Shown here: positions 18,972 through 43,733 of the stretch, in pieces
How positions within the stretch are numbered: position 1 is the first letter of the stretch
Layout of the letters: every line of letters starts with the position of its first letter
Source: Escherichia coli
Lineage (GTDB): Bacteria > Pseudomonadota > Gammaproteobacteria > Enterobacterales > Enterobacteriaceae
Assembly: GCA_902500205.1 (NCBI GenBank)
Contig: GCA_902500205.1_4868.1
Strand: one strand, 5' to 3'
DNA length: 64,000 nucleotides
The notes under the pieces: model-generated
Told to the model about the DNA's origin: nothing
What the model saw: the letters and a program-made list of their open reading frames with translations, nothing else
Databases searched by the model: none
Position numbers and translations under genes: made by a program

Positions 18972-20105
18972 ATGTCGACGCTCGATTTAGATTTAGAAGT
19001 CCTGACTGACGACTACGATCGCCTGGTCGCACTCGAAGGTCTGGGAGTTAAGCCCGACTTCCCTGCGGTTTGCGCGATTCGTCAGCGTTGGTGCTTAACC
19101 GACGACGGTGAAGATATGTTGGTTGCTCGTGAATCGCGCGAAGCGATGGAGCGTGCTCAGTTTATGACTGATACTGACCCGCGGGCTGGCATCCATCGCG
19201 CAGCAGGGCGCATTACTGCGAAAGCTGTTAAAGGTACTGGAAAGTTAGTGGGAGCTGGACTAGGCGCAACCGCAAAGGGCGCGGGTAAACTTTCGAAAAA
19301 GCTCGCATTACGCTTTTACGATTTCGCGGAAGCGCTAGCGAAAGAACAAGCCGACCGTTTGAAAGAAATAACTTCGAAAGCCGCATTCATGGAACGTAAG
19401 CTCAATAAGCTCAAAGCACGAATGTCGTTATTGGATGACCACAAAACACTCGCTGCGGTCGACGTTCACACGAGTAGCTGGACGTCTAAAGTTTGCTTTG
19501 AAGATCGACCCGATTTTGAAGCGTGTGTTAAGTTTTCTAAACGAACAAATGCGTACGAAGGCGTCGTGCAAAAGTACACGGTTTACACACGCACCGCTCT
19601 GAAGAAAAGCAAAGCATTCGAAGGGCCAGGCTTAAAACAAATCAGCAAGTCCACGAACTGGGCAGTTAAGCGCGCTGCTGGGTTGCTTGGCATCATCGAT
19701 CCCTTTAAAAAGGTGGAAGCTTTTCCTGTCCCTGGAAATATCGTTGTGGTTGAGCACCATAGTGGTAAGGTCAGTTGGGCAATTGCGCGTGACGGTGAGT
19801 ATGGTGAAACCATTAAATCGCTGGATATGCATCAGTGTGGGAAAGCAATAGAGGCTGTGGAAGCACTTATCAAATCTATTGCAGCACGCGGAACAAAGAA
19901 CCGCGTTGTGGGTTACACCGGCATTTACGAAGAAGTGGAAGCGATGAAGTCCGAGCTTAAGAACCTGGAAGGGGATGAGCTGAAAGAAGCCACTTTGCGC
20001 TACCGCAATGCAATGGCAATGGAAGACGCATTCACCACGGCGTTGGTACGCGTGGCGGAGGGTCTAATGGAGTGGACGAAGCAATCGTTGGCTGAGGTGA
20101 AATGA
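18972..20105 (+). CDS. Hypothetical protein (377 aa), translationally coupled to the downstream GNAT
   Basis: 'taaggagcagggg' SD; stop TGA overlaps the GNAT start. Confidence 0.8.
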   Translation: MSTLDLDLEVLTDDYDRLVALEGLGVKPDFPAVCAIRQRWCLTDDGEDMLVARESREAMERAQFMTDTDPRAGIHRAAGRITAKAVKGTGKLVGAGLGATAKGAGKLSKKLALRFYDFAEALAKEQADRLKEITSKAAFMERKLNKLKARMSLLDDHKTLAAVDVHTSSWTSKVCFEDRPDFEACVKFSKRTNAYEGVVQKYTVYTRTALKKSKAFEGPGLKQISKSTNWAVKRAAGLLGIIDPFKKVEAFPVPGNIVVVEHHSGKVSWAIARDGEYGETIKSLDMHQCGKAIEAVEALIKSIAARGTKNRVVGYTGIYEEVEAMKSELKNLEGDELKEATLRYRNAMAMEDAFTTALVRVAEGLMEWTKQSLAEVK

Positions 20106-20569
20106 TGAAAATTGTTTTTGTCACCAAGCCCAACTCTCCGTATGGAAAGAAATACTACGCGGACTTGTTAGGACTACACAACAAGTTATACGACGATCAG
20201 AAAATAAAACTTGCCGACTTAAACGGTCGTGAAGGGTTTAATCAAATCTTAAAACTGGAGGAGGTTTGGGGTGAAGGTACGCTGTGCGCTTGCGCCGTTG
20301 ATGACCGTGGTGTGGCTGTTGGTTTCATCACCTTCGGCTACACCAAAAAGGGACAACGTTTCCTCTGGGTATATAACTTTTTTGTAGATGAATCGGTTCG
20401 TTCACAAGGCGTTGGCCATGAACTAATCGAAGCCGTAGAAAACTACGGCAAATCAAAAGGCTGCGCATGGATGCAGCTTAACGTGCTCGGTAATAATGAC
20501 CGTGCTATTGCGTTTTATGAACGTTTCGGTTTTCGAACTGAATACCAGGATATGGTAAAGGAGCTTTAA
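20102..20569 (+). CDS. GNAT-family N-acetyltransferase (2 of 3)
   Basis: Motif 'VRSQGVGHELIEAV' and 'AFYERFGF'. Confidence 0.8.
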   Translation: MMKIVFVTKPNSPYGKKYYADLLGLHNKLYDDQKIKLADLNGREGFNQILKLEEVWGEGTLCACAVDDRGVAVGFITFGYTKKGQRFLWVYNFFVDESVRSQGVGHELIEAVENYGKSKGCAWMQLNVLGNNDRAIAFYERFGFRTEYQDMVKEL

Positions 20570-22266: not shown

Positions 22267-23031
22267 ATGTCAAAACTCAATAAAGCAGCAACCAAAGAAT
22301 GGCTTTCCGTACCTACCGCAGATGGTCAGTATCGCTACGTATTCACGTATGACGAAAATGACCTGACGGCAAAAGGTATTCCGCACATGTTAAGTCACAA
22401 ACTGATTAACAGCGTGACCGGTGCCACCTTAGTAGGTTCCGGCGGAAGGACAATCTTTTGTGCCCCCAGTTGGGATCAAACTGAACTGACCAAGAAAATG
22501 CTCGGTGAACTCCGGGCGGTTTCCGCACGTCTGTTCTTTAAGCTGATTGCCAGAAAACCGGCGCTATGGGATGCATGGTCTCAACACAATCTCGAGGCAT
22601 TGCGTGGGGAGTGTCTGAATTACGTATTGGTCGAAGAAGTGATTGATAACTTCTTCGCTAACGTGATGAAAACCGAACGACTGCGTAAGCCGAACACCGA
22701 CGGTTATTCGTTTGTCTCCGTTAAGAGCAGCGAACTGATTCGGGGTGAGTTTGCAGGGCATGTCCTTTCGGTAACTCGGAACCTGAGTTTCTTTGGCCAG
22801 CCTTTCAGTGAGCCAGTTGTTCAGGTAACTTATGATTTCCGTTTACCGTTTACTGTTCGGAATGAGTTTGACCCAGGTCAAGTTTCGTTGAAGTTTTTAT
22901 ATCCTCTCCAGTCATGGCCGTTATTGAAGAGGTTCTTAGCTGAGCCCCGTGTAGCTGCGGTGCTGCAAGCGTGGATTGATTCATGGCCAGAAGGCATTGA
23001 GGAAAAATCGAAAACGCGAGTTGACTTCTAA
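22267..23031 (+). CDS. Hypothetical protein (254 aa)
   Basis: ORF downstream of promoter motif copy 3. Confidence 0.75.
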   Translation: MSKLNKAATKEWLSVPTADGQYRYVFTYDENDLTAKGIPHMLSHKLINSVTGATLVGSGGRTIFCAPSWDQTELTKKMLGELRAVSARLFFKLIARKPALWDAWSQHNLEALRGECLNYVLVEEVIDNFFANVMKTERLRKPNTDGYSFVSVKSSELIRGEFAGHVLSVTRNLSFFGQPFSEPVVQVTYDFRLPFTVRNEFDPGQVSLKFLYPLQSWPLLKRFLAEPRVAAVLQAWIDSWPEGIEEKSKTRVDF

Positions 23032-23765: not shown

Positions 23766-23805
23766 CCCCTCTTACCTTCGGGTAAGAGGGTATTGTCTTT
23801 TTTAC
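23766..23805 (+). terminator. Intrinsic terminator (TTCG loop)
   Basis: 'ccctcttacc-ttcg-ggtaagaggg' followed by 'tattgtctttttt'. Confidence 0.85.
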
Positions 23806-23851
23806 AGATCGTAACAGTCTTATGCTTTTTGCTTCCAGTCCACTAAATTTC

Positions 23852-23873
23852 AGATATATATTACTTAGGTGAG
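23852..23873 (+). promoter_or_regulatory. Conserved 22-bp promoter-like motif, copy 4
   Basis: 'agatatatattacttaggtgag'; 49 nt upstream of ATG 23923; identical to copy 7. Confidence 0.55.
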
Positions 23874-25369: not shown

Positions 25370-25372
25370 TCA

Positions 25373-25410
25373 TTAAGGGGTCTTCGGACCCCTTAATTTT
25401 TTGTCTTTTT
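25373..25410 (+). terminator. Intrinsic terminator (TTCG loop)
   Basis: 'ttaaggggtc-ttcg-gaccccttaa' followed by 'ttttttgtcttttt'. Confidence 0.85.
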
Positions 25411-25458
25411 ACGCATTATCCTCATGTTGTGACAGCAATACCTTTTGAGGGCATTACA

Positions 25459-26457
25459 ATGAAAACTGTGGCTAAATTGTTCCGCAGCAGCATTCGCTCT
25501 GCCGAGTTCCAAAATAACGTCGGTAGCGATACTGTACGAGCACGCCGCCTAAAAGAGTTTCTAAAGGACGAGACTTATTCTGTTTACGTGGTGAAGAATA
25601 AAGAAACCTGGGAGGGTTATTTAGTGGCCACCTATCGACACGGTGACCCTACACTAACCTGTCACTATTTTGAGGAGTTTGTACCTGGGGCGTTCGATAA
25701 AGTTGGTTTGGCCCTTGTGCTCGACCATACCGGATTCGAATATATGTCGTGTCCAGCACCTACTGACGATGTTGAACAAAAACTGGTCGAAAAAGGGTTT
25801 GTTCTTTCAGATATCGTTTGGGCATGTCATTCTAAACTGTTTGACAAAGTAATCACCGCATCGGAAATCAAGATTATTTCTGGTGATGCATACGCAGAAC
25901 TTACCAAGGAAGATAAAGACGTTATCCTGAATTTGATTAGCGGTGCAATTTGCGAAGAGCTAGAATACGATATGCGTGGCTACTATACGCACATTGGCCC
26001 GTTAGCAGAAACAGTAATAGCAAGAATTCAGCACGCTAATGTGGAGACTGCAATTTGGCGAGACGGCCATGATATCGTCGGTATTGCCCAGATGCGCTTG
26101 GTTACACCAGGCGTCGTTGAACTTTCTGGTTTAACCGTTGCACCAACACACCGTAAACGTGGCATTGGCCGCCGGCTAATGGGCGCGCTATTCGATTTCG
26201 CACAACGTCATTCCGACCAAGTCTATATTGAAACAGCTGCTGATAATAATCCAGCAAATCACCTGTACGGCAACATCTTACGTTGCAAGCAGGTACTGCG
26301 TACACTAACGTTGAAACGCGATCCTGAACTTATTAGCTGGAAACGGGTGAATGGGAACCGCGCCGATCGAGTGCTGAAAGAAGAACCTAGCATTCCGGTG
26401 GAGACTACAACCAGGCTGACTATCAGTGATATGTTTCAATCTGGCATGAGAGGATGA
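25459..26457 (+). CDS. Two-domain protein: unknown N-terminal domain fused to a C-terminal GNAT acetyltransferase (3 of 3)
   Basis: C-terminal 'LSGLTVAPTHRKRGIGRRLMGALFDFA'; true start ATG 25459 (track 5' extension overlaps the terminator). Confidence 0.75.
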   Translation: MKTVAKLFRSSIRSAEFQNNVGSDTVRARRLKEFLKDETYSVYVVKNKETWEGYLVATYRHGDPTLTCHYFEEFVPGAFDKVGLALVLDHTGFEYMSCPAPTDDVEQKLVEKGFVLSDIVWACHSKLFDKVITASEIKIISGDAYAELTKEDKDVILNLISGAICEELEYDMRGYYTHIGPLAETVIARIQHANVETAIWRDGHDIVGIAQMRLVTPGVVELSGLTVAPTHRKRGIGRRLMGALFDFAQRHSDQVYIETAADNNPANHLYGNILRCKQVLRTLTLKRDPELISWKRVNGNRADRVLKEEPSIPVETTTRLTISDMFQSGMRG

Positions 26458-26463
26458 TATCGG

Positions 26464-27282
26464 GTGATAAGACCAATTTTAAAATGGATGGGTGGTAAGA
26501 GTCGCGTACTGCCCGAGTTGCTACAGGTGCTTCCAGATGCTGAGTATTTCGTTGAACCGTTTGTGGGTGCAGGGTCAGTGTTTTTAAACACTAAATACCC
26601 GAACTATATTCTCGGCGACACGAACCCAGACTTAATCGAGTTACTGACCATGGCGCGCGATCGTCCGGAAGCGCTGATTCTGGAAGCAAAGGCGCTCTTT
26701 GCAAATGGGCTGGACCGCGGTCTGTACATGAAACGGCGTGAGGAATTTAACAGCGAGACAACCACGGGGAAACCTAATCTCCAGCGCGCTGCGATGTTCC
26801 TGTATCTTACACGTCATGGTTACAACGGCTTGTGCAGATACAATCAGTCAGGTGGATTTAATGTCCCGTATGGTCAACATCCGAACGGTGCCTATTTCCC
26901 TGAAGAGGAAATTCTGGCGTGGGCAAAACGTTGTTCGGAAACCAACGTCGAGCTGCTCTGCGCCGACTTCCGCGACATCCTAAATAAGTGCCCATCTAAC
27001 GCAGTGATATACGCTGACCCGCCATACATCCCACTTTCGGATACGGCTAAACATGCGCAGTATCACAGCAAAGAATTTTCACAAGCTGACCACCGCGAGT
27101 TAGCGAAACTTTTAAAACAACAAGCTGCCGATGGCAATAAGGTCGTTCTGTCAAACGCAGATACGTTACTCACACGCGATATTTATTACGGCTTTACTTG
27201 GCGCGAAGTTCAGGTAGGTCGATATATGTCTGCGGATGCGAATAAGCGTAAAGCGGTGACGGAGCTAATCGGCACCTTATAA
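26464..27282 (+). CDS. dam: DNA adenine methyltransferase (Dam-type, N6-adenine)
   Basis: Near-collinear Dam signatures: 'KWMGGK', 'EPFVGAGSVFLNT', 'FLYLTRHGYNGLCRYN', 'IYADPPY'. Confidence 0.9.
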   Translation: MIRPILKWMGGKSRVLPELLQVLPDAEYFVEPFVGAGSVFLNTKYPNYILGDTNPDLIELLTMARDRPEALILEAKALFANGLDRGLYMKRREEFNSETTTGKPNLQRAAMFLYLTRHGYNGLCRYNQSGGFNVPYGQHPNGAYFPEEEILAWAKRCSETNVELLCADFRDILNKCPSNAVIYADPPYIPLSDTAKHAQYHSKEFSQADHRELAKLLKQQAADGNKVVLSNADTLLTRDIYYGFTWREVQVGRYMSADANKRKAVTELIGTL

Positions 27283-27291
27283 GGTACCAAC

Positions 27292-28095
27292 ATGCAACTA
27301 TTTAATCTATACGGTATGGACAAAAACGACCTGACCGTAGAGTTTAGTGGTCGGTTGACCACCTTGGGGCAACTCCGCGAACGGATTCAAGATTTGCGAC
27401 CCGTCGCAGACCAAGAAGACGATCATTGGTTAGTGTTGAGCAATAGCGGTCGTGCGCAAATGTATTTTCGTGGATGTCGTTCAGGTATTGTTTACTACAT
27501 CTACGAGCTGCACGTGCTCTCCGAGCCCCTGTTCCACGAGTGGAAGCGTTTAACGCGACTCCTGGAAGTGCAGATGCTCGATATTACCTGCTTTCCGCAT
27601 GACACTGAGCACGCAGCACTATACCAGCGCCTGGGGTTCGAAGCTGTAACGAAGCGTGTGGAGATTACTGTCAGTCCGAAATACGGTTTTACGTCAGACC
27701 CATCGGTTGTCCCGTTGGAGACATTGTCATTAGAACAAACCCAGGATGTTTGCTATCTAATGCGACCTACGCTAAAAGACGCAGGTACGCGTGAGATGTT
27801 GGGTGAATTAGCAAATGGTTTTGTCTCTGCGTTCGTGGGGTTGCACGGCCAGAAACCGTTTTCATTAATGCTTTATAAGGAATTCCCGAAGAGCATCATT
27901 ACTGAGCAATTCTGCTGCCAAACTTTTGACCCGGTTGCTTACTCGGTAGAGTTTCTAAAACACTACCACGCTATTTTGCATTTGGCGGGACAGAAAGGTA
28001 AGAAGGTCAACATGGGTGTTGCGATAGAGCACGAGTTTCCTTCTATCGAAGGGTTAGAGTATCGTGTAATCACGCATCACTACACCCTTGCGTAA
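27292..28095 (+). CDS. Hypothetical protein (267 aa)
   Basis: ORF with ATG start. Confidence 0.75.
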   Translation: MQLFNLYGMDKNDLTVEFSGRLTTLGQLRERIQDLRPVADQEDDHWLVLSNSGRAQMYFRGCRSGIVYYIYELHVLSEPLFHEWKRLTRLLEVQMLDITCFPHDTEHAALYQRLGFEAVTKRVEITVSPKYGFTSDPSVVPLETLSLEQTQDVCYLMRPTLKDAGTREMLGELANGFVSAFVGLHGQKPFSLMLYKEFPKSIITEQFCCQTFDPVAYSVEFLKHYHAILHLAGQKGKKVNMGVAIEHEFPSIEGLEYRVITHHYTLA

Positions 28096-28104
28096 GGAGA
28101 GAAT

Positions 28105-28917
28105 ATGCTGAGAGTTATCGAACGCACGGAGAGGATTCTGGACCGAACGTGGTTGGAAGACCGTAAAGCGTTATCGTTGTTAAACGATATCGATCCTTCC
28201 ACGTTACAAGATGAACGTCGTCTTTACTACCGAATCTTTGAAGTTTTCAGTCGGGACACAGTTGCGCCCGACGCGATCGTGCTCTGTCTGGACCACGGAT
28301 ACATGTTAGAAGTTATCAATATGGTTCGTGCTTTAGACGCCCAGTTAACCTCGCTTGCGGATGCTTTACTCCGCTCAGCGGGGTGTAACTACGCGATGCA
28401 TTTTACTCGTTCTGAAGGGGACGAATATGCTCGCATGGGCTTTTGTTGCGAAACGATAAACTACCGCAAAATTAATACATTGGTGCCTAGCCACGATGAG
28501 GATTTCTGTGGGGATGTCAGTTCGTTGTTCGATAGTAAGAAAGCGTTCTTGGATTGGGTTAGAATGCTTTACGGTAAAAGCTCTATCTACTCAACGCTCG
28601 TTACGGGCGGGAGGATGATGTCGTGGCGGAACAGCGATAGTTACAAACTGACAGTGCTCACACATCGTGGACAACGCTGGGTTATTGGTGGATGGTTTAC
28701 CGCAGAAGGGGTGGTTACTCTAAGCCGAGAGGAGTTCGGGCTGTTGATGCACTGTATCCAGTCTGAATTACCGGTGGGGGATGAACTGATTTACACCTAC
28801 CACCAATATACTGGGGGGCCTGCCGCAATGTGGTTATTAGAAAACGGTTGGCTGCCTGAAAGTTATGTGTACGGACGTACTCTGAAAACTAGTAATGGAG
28901 AAGATAATGCAAATTAA
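28105..28917 (+). CDS. Hypothetical protein (270 aa)
   Basis: 'gtaaggagag' SD before ATG. Confidence 0.75.
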   Translation: MLRVIERTERILDRTWLEDRKALSLLNDIDPSTLQDERRLYYRIFEVFSRDTVAPDAIVLCLDHGYMLEVINMVRALDAQLTSLADALLRSAGCNYAMHFTRSEGDEYARMGFCCETINYRKINTLVPSHDEDFCGDVSSLFDSKKAFLDWVRMLYGKSSIYSTLVTGGRMMSWRNSDSYKLTVLTHRGQRWVIGGWFTAEGVVTLSREEFGLLMHCIQSELPVGDELIYTYHQYTGGPAAMWLLENGWLPESYVYGRTLKTSNGEDNAN

Positions 28918-29185
28918 TCGTACAGTGTCGAAGTCTAAAGAAGTCGTTTACAACGTTGAAGACGGTGATGTAATGCAGTTTCGTGCCGTCATTGACGAAC
29001 AGCACGTACTCCAAGTCGTTTATTCGAAAGAAGAAATGACTCGCGCACATAGCCGCGTGTTAGAAAAACTCGTTGCGAAAGCCAAACAGCGCGACGGTAT
29101 TAAATCCTACAACGTCATGTACGGTTATCAGTTACGTGAGGTGGAAGGGGAGCTGTTAATCACCCCTGTTCCGGTAACGGCGTAA
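28907..29185 (+). CDS. Small hypothetical protein
   Basis: ATG 28907 after 'ggaga' (track start 28895). Confidence 0.6.
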   Translation: MQINRTVSKSKEVVYNVEDGDVMQFRAVIDEQHVLQVVYSKEEMTRAHSRVLEKLVAKAKQRDGIKSYNVMYGYQLREVEGELLITPVPVTA

Positions 29186-29225
29186 TTCGCCATTGTATGA
29201 CCCTTAAATACCGTTGAGGTTAACT

Positions 29226-29708
29226 ATGGATATGATCGAATTAGGTCAGCTCCCTCAGCACGATTTTGATTTAGGCGTGCGTCATGAGGAAGGGGCCGAC
29301 GCGAACACACTTATGGCCCGCTACTACGAGCTACTGACCGGTCAACCGTTGGACGATGAGCATATCAACCGTTTTGAAAAACTGTTGGCACAACTCATCA
29401 CCTCTAACGCAGAACGCATTGGCATGTTGAACGAAATGAACTTTGCCGATGTAGAGCCATCAGACGCTCAGAAGATTCTTATCGATGGTCCTGTGCCAAG
29501 CGATGAAGTACAAGACCTTCTGGCAGGTATCCGTGCAGGCTTCGATGAAGCTGCTGAGAAATACGCGGAAGAGCTGGCAGATGTCGATTTGGCTGCGCCG
29601 GTTGACCCGAATCCGTCTGCAGAGGAGACTGCAGCTGCGAAATTGAAACTCGCACGCTTTATCTGTGCTGCTGTCTTGACAGACGACCGTGAAGAAAACC
29701 AACTGTAA
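29226..29708 (+). CDS. Acidic hypothetical protein
   Basis: ATG 29226 (track TTG 29214); D/E-rich. Confidence 0.7.
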   Translation: MDMIELGQLPQHDFDLGVRHEEGADANTLMARYYELLTGQPLDDEHINRFEKLLAQLITSNAERIGMLNEMNFADVEPSDAQKILIDGPVPSDEVQDLLAGIRAGFDEAAEKYAEELADVDLAAPVDPNPSAEETAAAKLKLARFICAAVLTDDREENQL

Positions 29709-29714
29709 GGCCCG

Positions 29715-29750
29715 CCTCCTTGCCCACGGGTGAGGAGGTCCCTTTTTATT
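29715..29750 (+). terminator. Intrinsic terminator
   Basis: 'cctccttgcc-cacg-ggtgaggagg' (two G-U pairs) followed by 'tccctttttattt'. Confidence 0.7.
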
Positions 29751-43688: not shown

Positions 43689-43711
43689 CTAGTCCGATTA
43701 CAATTATTTTC

Positions 43712-43733
43712 AGATATATATTACTTAGGTGAG
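43712..43733 (+). promoter_or_regulatory. Conserved 22-bp promoter-like motif, copy 7
   Basis: 'agatatatattacttaggtgag', identical to copy 4; 51 nt upstream of ATG 43785. Confidence 0.55.

Follow-up and report, generated by a model that had tools for sequence, protein, structure and literature searches.

The two adjacent genes analysed here probably encode a tandem-GNAT acyltransferase and an orphan Dam methyltransferase acting on phage DNA; they would be expressed within a six-gene unit headed by a motif for a phage RNA polymerase, and they would owe their adjacency to common descent. As a whole, this account has our confidence to a reasonable rather than a high degree. The window (the whole stretch of DNA that was analysed, 64,000 nucleotides) is ~97% identical to the Salmonella jumbo phage SPN3US, and by its sequence the DNA belongs to an SPN3US-like giant Salmonella phage, a nucleus-forming relative of phiKZ. 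The tandem-GNAT and Dam genes are both genuine, and public records already annotate their SPN3US counterparts as gp104 and gp105, respectively; both enzyme types are common among phages and would come as no surprise to a specialist. In the literature searched, SPN3US gp104 and gp105 are mentioned as annotation only, and neither enzyme assays nor data on methylation, localisation or expression were found for these proteins. The genes are referred to by the names of their SPN3US orthologues, and the features discussed are collected in Table 1.

Table 1. Features of the gp104-gp109 region, in coordinates of the window.
Feature	Coordinates	Strand	Size and remarks
Intrinsic terminator closing the upstream unit (HTH gene to gp103)	25372..25405	+	11-bp stem, TTCG loop, T-run; two scans
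Bipartite motif TTTACG-N14-TGTGACA, candidate promoter	25408..25434	+	position and conservation
Tandem-GNAT acyltransferase gene, SPN3US gp104 orthologue	25459..26457	+	332 aa
dam Shine-Dalgarno sequence GAGAGGA	26448..26454	+	inside the last GNAT-gene codons; read from the sequence
Orphan Dam-type GATC N6-adenine DNA methyltransferase, SPN3US gp105 orthologue	26464..27282	+	272 aa from GTG
gp106-like protein	27292..28095	+	267 aa
gp107-like protein	28105..28917	+	270 aa; weak link to the gp106 family
gp108-like small ORF	28895..29185	+	92-96 aa; ORF list, phrog_7896
gp109-like acidic protein, final gene of the unit	29214..29708	+	160-164 aa, pI 4.1
Intrinsic terminator closing the six-gene unit	29714..29739	+	terminator scan; followed by a TTTAC...TGTGA copy at 29750

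Two Consecutive GNAT Folds in gp104

The Pfam family Acetyltransf_1 (PF00583) matches gp104 at aa 194-270 (E 2e-14, 54.1 bits vs a cut-off of 20.7), the GNAT domain being placed at aa 188-272, and the Pfam search gave no match in the first ~185 aa. The earlier note had placed the open reading frame correctly, its 333 aa amounting to 332 aa plus the stop codon, and had described the N-terminal ~190 aa as an unknown domain; sequence and structure searches instead reveal a second, degenerate GNAT fold in this region. An AF2 alignment of 6 close sequences yielded an unusable model (pLDDT 50); with distant homologues from an exhaustive search added, the pLDDT rose to 83, and each half of the resulting model displays the topology b1-a1-a2-b2-b3-b4-a3-b5-a4-b6. 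In this model, gp104 is a tandem GNAT whose architecture is like that of MshD and VipF, with a degenerate N-terminal GNAT (aa 1-124), a C-terminal GNAT (aa ~137-286) and a disordered, basic tail (aa 293-332). The best Foldseek matches to the model are all tandem GNATs, over ~300 aligned columns. The tandem-GNAT acetyltransferases compared, namely the mycothiol synthase MshD (1ozp/2c27), the Legionella effector VipF (7wx7/6wqb), the clavulanate ORF14 protein (2wpw) and MAB_4324 (7q3a), have two consecutive GNAT folds in common with gp104 but share only 12-17% identity with it, and gp104 is orthologous to none of them; against the MshD equivalog model TIGR03448 it scores 24 bits, the cut-off being 163. 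At the sequence level, the best models are RimI, MshD and aminoglycoside-type GNATs, all of them far under their cut-offs.

Motif A (Q/R-x-x-G-x-G/A), the acetyl-CoA pyrophosphate-binding loop, takes the form R232-K-R-G235-I-G237 in the C-terminal domain of gp104 and was not found in the N-terminal domain. Family-wide, G237 (invariant in 12 sequences) and N263 are kept, H268 and R238 are near-invariant, and in most members the C-terminal domain scores above the GNAT threshold of Pfam; with its CoA-binding motif retained, the C-terminal half is likely to be the catalytic one. The N-terminal domain has conserved motifs of its own (GDxTLxC and LLDHTG), which are restricted to this phage clade. 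Taken together, gp104 would be a tandem-GNAT acyl-CoA N-acyltransferase in which the N-terminal half is strongly conserved yet degenerate and devoid of a CoA-binding motif; judging from MshD and VipF, this half may contribute to acceptor binding or act as a scaffold.

It is quite improbable that gp104 is instead non-enzymatic, a binding or scaffold protein repurposed like the GNAT-like domain of chimallin, with gp104, gp106 and gp107 forming a structural or adaptor family. Chimallin does hold an inactive GNAT fold (PMC9365700), gp106 is without motif A, and in distant relatives of gp104 other residues take the place of the motif-B Tyr and, in the most distant members, of the first Gly in motif A; the family-wide retention of G237, N263, H268 and R238 and the Pfam matches of the C-terminal domain nevertheless argue for an enzyme. 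Still less credible, and in our view highly improbable, is a substrate shared with Dam, that is a module for base modification of DNA (or RNA), the GNAT acylating a nucleobase like Mu Mom and Dam adding N6-methylation. Adenine-acylating enzymes of the GNAT superfamily (Mom) occur in jumbo phages (PMC7824862), the GNAT and Dam genes are tightly coupled, and the basic tail of gp104 is conserved; against this, the nearest folds are small-molecule or protein acetyltransferases, nothing Mom-like and no likeness to nucleic-acid-acetylating GNATs stands out among the Pfam/NCBIfam matches of gp104, and routine sequencing has produced the public genomes of the group, for which the literature searched reports no hypermodification.

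An Orphan Dam Methyltransferase

A Dam methyltransferase 6 nt after the GNAT gene, as the earlier note had it, is confirmed: the TGA stop codon is followed by TATCGG and by the GTG at 26464. The open reading frame matches the Pfam family MethyltransfD12 (PF02086, E 3e-54), the NCBIfam model TIGR00571 ‘dam’ (258 bits, cut-off 115) and E. coli Dam (2g1p; phmmer, E 5e-58). Motif I (FxGxG) and motif IV (DPPY), present as FVGAGS and ADPPY, both align to E. coli Dam, and in the phmmer alignment to 2g1p the residues K9, Y119, N120, L122, R124 and P134, which we take to be those contacting the GATC bases, are all identical in the phage protein. With catalytic and base-contact residues conserved in this manner, the phage Dam would methylate the adenine in GATC. 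Like E. coli Dam and orphan phage Dams such as P1 Dmt, it combines a D12-class fold with the lack of a partner endonuclease: the neighbouring genes give no nuclease and no PADLOC match, so that no restriction-modification system is recognised, and the best PADLOC model for the protein is ‘orphan methyltransferase’. Its score of 248 bits against the host Dam equivalog NF008152 lies under the cut-off of 441, which points to a distinct phage Dam subfamily; P1 Dmt is a detectable homologue (35% identity) and T4 Dam a distant one only (E 1e-9). Unlike E. coli Dam and P1 Dmt, this enzyme comes from a phage that forms a nucleus and whose genome shows a deficit of GATC.

In terms of its start codon, the GTG (272 aa) is better supported by the sequence than the ATG of the public SPN3US annotation (264 aa), since the Dam profile already matches from residue 2 if translation starts at the GTG, the relatives are all called at 271-276 aa, and the final codons of the GNAT gene contain a GAGG Shine-Dalgarno sequence 10 nt before the GTG. 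The terminal Arg-Gly codons of the GNAT gene (AGAGGA or CGAGGA) are retained in four relatives, and the translation of dam would be coupled to that of the GNAT gene. A read-through fusion of the two proteins, which are in the same frame across one TGA, was ruled out, as the relatives have a TAA or an overlapping ATGA in another frame.

The likeliest substrate of the phage Dam would be phage DNA replicating in the phage nucleus, where the host Dam may not reach. There is a precedent in chimalliviruses, whose nucleus takes up enzymes that protect DNA (PMC13309987). Packaged genomes would bear the Dam mark, which would guard them from cleavage of the DpnII/MboI type, play a part in phage DNA transactions, or both; an anti-restriction role is conventionally ascribed to such an enzyme and may plausibly apply in this phage group. 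Among palindromic tetramers in the window, GATC shows the strongest depletion (119 sites observed, 299 expected), which is surprising if Dam methylation alone lifted the cost of GATC sites. The literature searched holds no GATC methylation data for this phage.

Alternatively, Dam could serve phage DNA metabolism or regulation and not anti-restriction, through strand discrimination, signals for replication or packaging, or gene control that responds to methylation, a reading that we regard as unlikely and yet worth weighing. Precedents for a role of this kind are P1 Dmt and the control of Mu mom by Dam. The homology to P1 Dmt is consistent with such a role, as are the co-expression of dam with non-early genes (its motif class is that of the thymidylate kinase gene), the far better conservation of Dam among relatives (54-85% identity vs 24-78% for neighbour genes) and the fact that the phage nucleus already shuts out nucleases (PMC9365700). 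However, GATC sites are not markedly clustered in the window (9 close pairs vs 6.4 expected, only a few 3-site clusters), whether near promoters or elsewhere, and no known Dam-dependent element was identified.

A Six-Gene Unit and Its Candidate Promoter

Rather than the two-gene operon of the earlier note, the unit comprises six genes and runs from 25409 to the end of its closing terminator at 29739, with gaps between genes of 6, 9, 9, -11 and 40 nt. The terminator scan found no + strand terminator between those starting at 25372 and 29714, hence none between the GNAT and Dam genes, which makes the co-transcription of these two very likely. The upstream terminator has its hairpin retained in four diverged relatives via compensatory changes in the stem.

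The motif TTTACG-N14-TGTGACA occurs four times in the window (at 25408, 15211, 23075 and 29750), always on the + strand, directly after a terminator and ~25-45 nt upstream of a start codon. In most relatives, down to ~29-30% protein identity, TTTTTAC(G/A)-N13-16-TGTG stands upstream of the orthologous gene, the spacer having diverged; L009 and L012 carry TGCATG or TGTATC in place of the second box. The element that had been proposed to drive the operon is hence a real, conserved motif that heads the unit, but it is not sigma-70-like: the scan gave no sigma-70 site at 25400-25460 and there is no TATAAT-like hexamer 16-18 nt past TTTACG, so that a sigma-70 promoter at 25408-25434 was ruled out. 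A CRP-like or palindromic operator at TGTGACA was likewise ruled out, no second half-site being seen on inspection.

Judged by its position and conservation, the motif is a candidate promoter, probably read by a phage-encoded RNA polymerase, and the six-gene unit would be transcribed from it. phiKZ-like phages use their own RNA polymerases and are independent of that of the host (PMC7598289). In comparison with phiKZ-type promoters (AT-rich early; late with a TATG initiator), it likewise is short and conserved and heads a transcription unit in a phage with its own multisubunit RNA polymerases, and several copies hold (T/C)ATG beside the TGTG box, reminiscent of the late TATG initiator; the bipartite TTTAC-N14-16-TGTG(A/T) nonetheless differs from the published phiKZ consensus. 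The sources covered give no promoter consensus for SPN3US-like phages. The motif class of the gp104-Dam unit is shared with thymidylate kinase and differs from the AT-rich early type seen nearby; an immediate-early role in counter-defence is thus not indicated.

Probable GNAT-Like Proteins Encoded Downstream of dam

BLASTP found no match among gp104, gp106 and gp107. Comparison of profiles by hhalign aligned gp104 with gp106 over 253 collinear columns (probability 79%, E 1.6e-5) when 13-sequence profiles were used, and with a probability of only 29% from 9-sequence profiles. In BFVD, the gp104 model matched an uncharacterised 276-aa Kwan protein (E 9e-12), and 276 aa is the length of Kwan gp133, a member of the gp106 family encoded by the gene after dam. 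Sequence and profile searches gave neither a Pfam nor a PDB match for the gp106 family, and motif A was not found in gp106, which by these comparisons is a probable non-catalytic tandem-GNAT-like paralogue of gp104.

The gp107 family, likewise without a Pfam or PDB match in profile searches, is connected more loosely, the hhalign E values being 9e-3 for gp106 vs gp107, 2e-3 for gp107 vs gp107b and 1.5e-3 for gp106 vs gp107b, each over ~210-240 collinear columns. Neither the gp103 family nor the gp99-like family of ~250 aa gave any signal against the GNAT-like families, and gp109 has no Pfam match. BFVD also returned structural matches to Erwinia phage proteins of 213-215 aa, one of them Kwan gp127, to which no gene of the window could be tied.

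Adjacency by Descent or a Joint System

A gp104-like gene is followed by dam in 18/18 related loci, and dam by a gp106-like gene in all 17 loci with enough flank (17/17). The region is, however, collinear in all relatives from the Tmk and HTH genes onward, so that the conserved adjacency carries little functional weight. RisingSun, a chimallivirus and thus a nucleus-forming phage, but a more distant one, encodes a 39%-identical Dam alone, without a GNAT partner, and in the Vibrio phage pVp-JHP1101 the gene after dam is unrelated to gp106. On these comparisons, the GNAT-Dam adjacency is a feature inherited within one phage clade, and nothing found ties both enzymes to one pathway.

A counter-defence pairing of the two enzymes is a conjecture; the earlier note had read them as a counter-defence operon, for which the adjacency in one clade only and the solitary Dam of RisingSun provide no support. 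In such a cassette, which we consider rather unlikely, Dam would mask GATC and the tandem GNAT would be a second anti-defence effector that, for example, acetylates and thereby inactivates a host immunity protein or the transcription/translation machinery of the host, in the manner of Rac and VipF. The strict linkage and translational coupling at 18/18 loci would fit, and so would the top structural match, VipF, being a bacterial effector with host proteins as its acetylation targets, the modification of host RNA polymerase by phage GNATs such as Rac (PMC7824862), and the strongly acidic, DNA-mimic-like composition of the product of the last gene. Nevertheless, gp104, gp106, gp107 and gp109 have no PADLOC or anti-defence family match, and the linkage is confined to a single collinear clade, with RisingSun and pVp-JHP1101 departing from it.

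A broader version, in which Dam and the lineage-specific tandem-GNAT family of the SPN3US/Machinavirus/Wellingtonvirus clade (gp104 apparently active; gp106 and perhaps gp107/gp107b non-catalytic) constitute one functional module, is very improbable. If it were true, the GNAT-like proteins might direct Dam to the phage DNA in the phage nucleus, accompany it there or regulate it, or they might add a second mark of acyl type, and the module would be a new kind of DNA-marking/anti-defence cassette suited to nucleus-forming phages.

Significance for Nucleus-Forming Phages

Returning to the preferred account of an acyltransferase and an orphan Dam that are neighbours by descent, the tandem-GNAT assignment and the paralogue family sharpen the annotation of several ‘hypothetical’ genes in ~50 sequenced phages, which are Salmonella and Erwinia biocontrol candidates, while the recurrent TTTAC-N14-TGTG provides a specific class of candidate promoters in SPN3US-like phages. 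For jumbo phages that form a nucleus, camouflage of the DNA is considered largely dispensable, as their protein shell bars nucleases; this clade nonetheless keeps a well-conserved GATC methylase while its genome avoids GATC. Entry of Dam into the nucleus and methylation of the phage DNA there would bear on whether the shell alone is enough protection and on whether the host Dam is excluded.

The GNAT–Dam Region and Its Source Phage

Megablast puts the region at about 97% identity with Salmonella phage SPN3US and some 20 close relatives, all of them jumbo phages of ~240 kb; SPN3US, whose gene numbering is used here, belongs to the phiKZ-like phages, encodes multisubunit RNA polymerases of its own and forms a nuclear shell of chimallin (PMC7598289; PMC9365700). 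The GNAT and dam genes (gp104 and gp105) are already annotated in about 50 relatives and in SPN3US, as SPN3US_0104 (putative GCN5-related N-acetyltransferase) and SPN3US_0105 (putative DNA adenine methylase). What is new here is the tandem-GNAT nature of gp104, the corrected dam start and the six-gene operon, along with a conserved candidate phage promoter motif and gp106 as a probable pseudo-enzyme paralogue. In the SPFM phage GenBank records LR535901, LR535903-LR535908, LR535911-LR535913 and LR535917, the region was matched only as many short fragments and the protein calls are broken; such fragmentary matches suggest error-rich assemblies.

Genes and motif copies of the GNAT–Dam region and its surroundings
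Feature	Position	Strand	Details
gp104 (GNAT)	ATG 25459, TGA 26455-26457	+	332 codons (ORF list, sequence)
gp105 (dam)	GTG 26464 to 27282	+	272 codons (ORF list, sequence)
gp106	27292-28095		
gp107	28105-28917		
Upstream element	TTTACG 25408-25413, N14, TGTGACA 25428-25434	+	
Bipartite-motif copy	15211	+	After terminator, before start codon
Bipartite-motif copy	23075	+	Exact TTTACG-N14-TGTGACA, upstream of thymidylate kinase
Bipartite-motif copy	29750	+	After terminator, before start codon
AT-rich motif AGATATATATTACTTAGGTGAGAGTTA	~23840-23870, ~43690-43720		After terminators 23767, 43650
More divergent AT-rich version AGATAGATATTATCTTAGG	2107		After terminator at 2057

A Tandem GNAT Protein

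The earlier note had described a 333-aa protein with a GNAT domain behind an unknown N-terminal domain; the gene and its GNAT domain (aa 188-272; Pfam Acetyltransf_1, E 2e-14, above threshold) are as stated, the length is one residue shorter, and the first ~185 residues have no Pfam match. The protein family is small: a word-indexed search gave five close full-length homologues, and residues 1-185, used as query in exhaustive HMMER searching, matched nine proteins in total, six of them distant (27-39% identity, 315-335 aa) and of the same two-part layout. An AlphaFold model built with 12 sequences (pLDDT 83, pTM 0.72, as against pLDDT 50 with the close set alone) arranges residues 1-124 in the order β1-α1-α2-β2-β3-β4-α3-β5-α4-β6, which is the GNAT topology, and repeats this topology at residues ~137-286. 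Its top PDB matches in Foldseek, aligned over ~300 columns (E ~1e-13 to 1e-11), are the tandem-GNAT proteins VipF, clavulanate ORF14, a glucosamine N-acetyltransferase, MAB_4324 and MshD. On the strength of this topology and these matches, the N-terminal half of gp104 is a second, degenerate GNAT fold and no longer an unknown domain.

The CoA pyrophosphate-binding motif R232-K-R-G-I-G237 and the motif-B-like N263-x-x-A-N-H-L-Y are confined to the C-terminal half, and the N-terminal half carries highly conserved motifs of its own (G62-D-x-T-L-x-C68, L88-D-H-T-G92 and G113-F). The parallel with MshD and VipF suggests that catalysis would lie with the C-terminal domain and that the N-terminal domain would help to bind the acceptor. 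The NCBIfam matches (RimI, MshD, streptothricin and aminoglycoside acetyltransferases) are all weak and sub-threshold, and so point to no particular acceptor. Residues 293-332 (26335-26454) form a basic C-terminal tail, predicted to be disordered, with near-invariant W294 and P310 (VSWKR-KGNR...EP). The window holds another GNAT at 20102-20569, a single-domain protein (Pfam E 1e-17) orthologous to SPN3US YP_009153389, which is reported to have shown no spermidine N-acetyltransferase activity when expressed (PMC9992855).

The Dam Methyltransferase and Its Start Codon

The Dam-type adenine methyltransferase reported 6 nt behind the GNAT gene is confirmed by the ORF list, the sequence and Pfam, whose D12-class adenine methyltransferase domain covers the whole of gp105 (E 3e-54). 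Among solved structures E. coli Dam is the nearest to it (E 5e-58), with T4 Dam far more distant (E 1e-9). In alignment, gp105 is identical to E. coli Dam at motif I (FVGAGS), at motif IV (DPPY) and at K9, Y119, N120, L122, R124 and P134, which we take, from the 2g1p work, to be the GATC-contacting residues. It passes the Dam subfamily model without reaching the host-dam equivalog (248 vs 441 bits); PADLOC matches it best to the model 'orphan methyltransferase', and none of the genes next to dam looks like a nuclease. GATC specificity and activity of gp105 are strongly indicated by these sequence features.

In the public SPN3US annotation dam is 264 aa long, an ATG lying 24 nt beyond the GTG being taken as its start. 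The GTG is better supported: the N-terminus translated from it, VIRPILKWMGGK, matches the N-terminal motif of Dam; the match to the TIGR00571 profile starts at residue 2; gene callers give relatives' Dam 271-276 aa in every case; a GAGG lies 10 nt upstream, inside the final GNAT-gene codons; and the C-terminal Arg-Gly of the GNAT protein, whose codons form this Shine-Dalgarno sequence, is conserved in close relatives. The late public start cuts off 26464-26487 and with it this conserved motif, in which lies the Lys that corresponds to K9 of E. coli Dam. Six bases, TATCGG, separate the GNAT TGA from the dam GTG. Among relatives this junction measures 6, 3, 1, 9 or 33 nt or is a 4-8 nt overlap, a pattern compatible with translational coupling of GNAT and dam, though equally tight spacing is usual throughout the phage genome.

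No palindromic tetramer in the whole window is as under-represented as GATC (119 observed vs 299 expected from trinucleotides, ratio 0.40), and its sites show no marked clustering there. Given this depletion and the encoded GATC methylase, the phage avoids GATC and presumably also methylates it; this combination suggests selection by something recognising GATC and does not indicate the agent.

The Transcription Unit and Its Candidate Promoter

A strong terminator hairpin (25372-25397) with a T-run behind it closes the preceding genes, and the terminator scan places the next + strand terminator at 29714-29739; the six genes gp104 to gp109 are closely packed in the stretch bounded by the two. 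The element TTTACG-N14-TGTGACA, which the earlier note had offered as a possible promoter, is real, recurs and is conserved in relatives. A sigma-70-like reading of it is ruled out, the scan showing no sigma-70 site there and the -10 hexamer being absent. Three further copies fit TTAC(G/A)-N14-16-TGTG(A/T)(A/C)A. As the search expression was refined once the sites had been seen, its shuffle statistic is circular, and support comes from the positional pattern: all copies are on the + strand, directly behind a terminator and ~25-45 nt ahead of a start codon. Upstream of the gp104 orthologue in 13 relatives, down to ~29% protein identity, compensatory changes preserve the terminator hairpin; most of them retain TTTTTAC(G/A), followed after 13-16 nt by a TGTG box, while the spacer diverges, and in two (L009 and L012) the second element is TGCATG or TGTATC. 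The element is therefore best described as a candidate promoter of a non-early class for phage RNA polymerase, and its other copies suggest a promoter class common to them and the GNAT–Dam unit. A distinct AT-rich motif, AGATATATATTACTTAGG..., found behind the terminators at 23767 and 43650, differs from TTTAC-N14-TGTG and is similar to the conserved AT-rich early promoters, those of the virion RNA polymerase, that have been described in phiKZ-like phages.

Neighbours of the GNAT–Dam Pair

Neither gp106 nor gp107 has a sequence match in Pfam, NCBIfam or PDB. Profile-profile comparison linked gp104 and gp106 with 29% probability using 9 sequences and 79% using 13 (E 1.6e-5), the latter over 253 collinear columns that take in both halves. 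In BFVD the gp104 model has further matches (E 1e-13 to 1e-7) among uncharacterised Erwinia jumbo phage proteins of 252-278 aa, one of them a 276-aa protein of phage Kwan that agrees, by organism and length only, with Kwan gp133, the gp106-family member directly after dam. With motif A absent from gp106, the profile link and the BFVD matches make it a probable tandem-GNAT-like paralogue of non-catalytic type; the links of gp107 and of a third group, gp107b, to gp106 are only weak (profile-profile, E 1e-3 to 9e-3).

The last gene of the unit (29226-29708) encodes a very acidic gp109-like protein (160 aa, pI 4.1, 35 Asp+Glu vs 12 Lys+Arg) that has no family match and resembles DNA-mimic anti-restriction proteins in composition. 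Upstream of thymidylate kinase, a gp99-like family of ~250 aa (22267-23031, and L005, L010, L012, L013 and L015 among relatives' loci, in one to two adjacent copies) has no detectable relationship to the GNAT-like family.

Conservation of the Pair and a Possible Counter-Defence Role

The earlier note's finding is real and its gene identities were rightly read. Across Seoulvirus, Machinavirus, Wellingtonvirus and metagenomic relatives, a gp104-like gene is followed by Dam in 18/18 loci, and a gp106-like gene comes next in each of the 17 loci whose flank is long enough. Since the whole region is collinear across these phages, this order is as predicted by vertical inheritance. Outside the clade the link is absent: the Dam of the Erwinia chimallivirus RisingSun (39% identical) stands alone on the opposite strand, and in Vibrio jumbo phage pVp-JHP1101 an unrelated protein follows Dam. 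The PADLOC comparison gave no anti-defence or defence family match to gp104, gp106, gp107 or gp109, and the literature searched held no data on gp104 or gp105; protection from restriction by the methylase appears there as a generic suggestion (PMC6614189). A counter-defence role is unsupported for the acetyltransferase; for Dam it is a reasonable conjecture.
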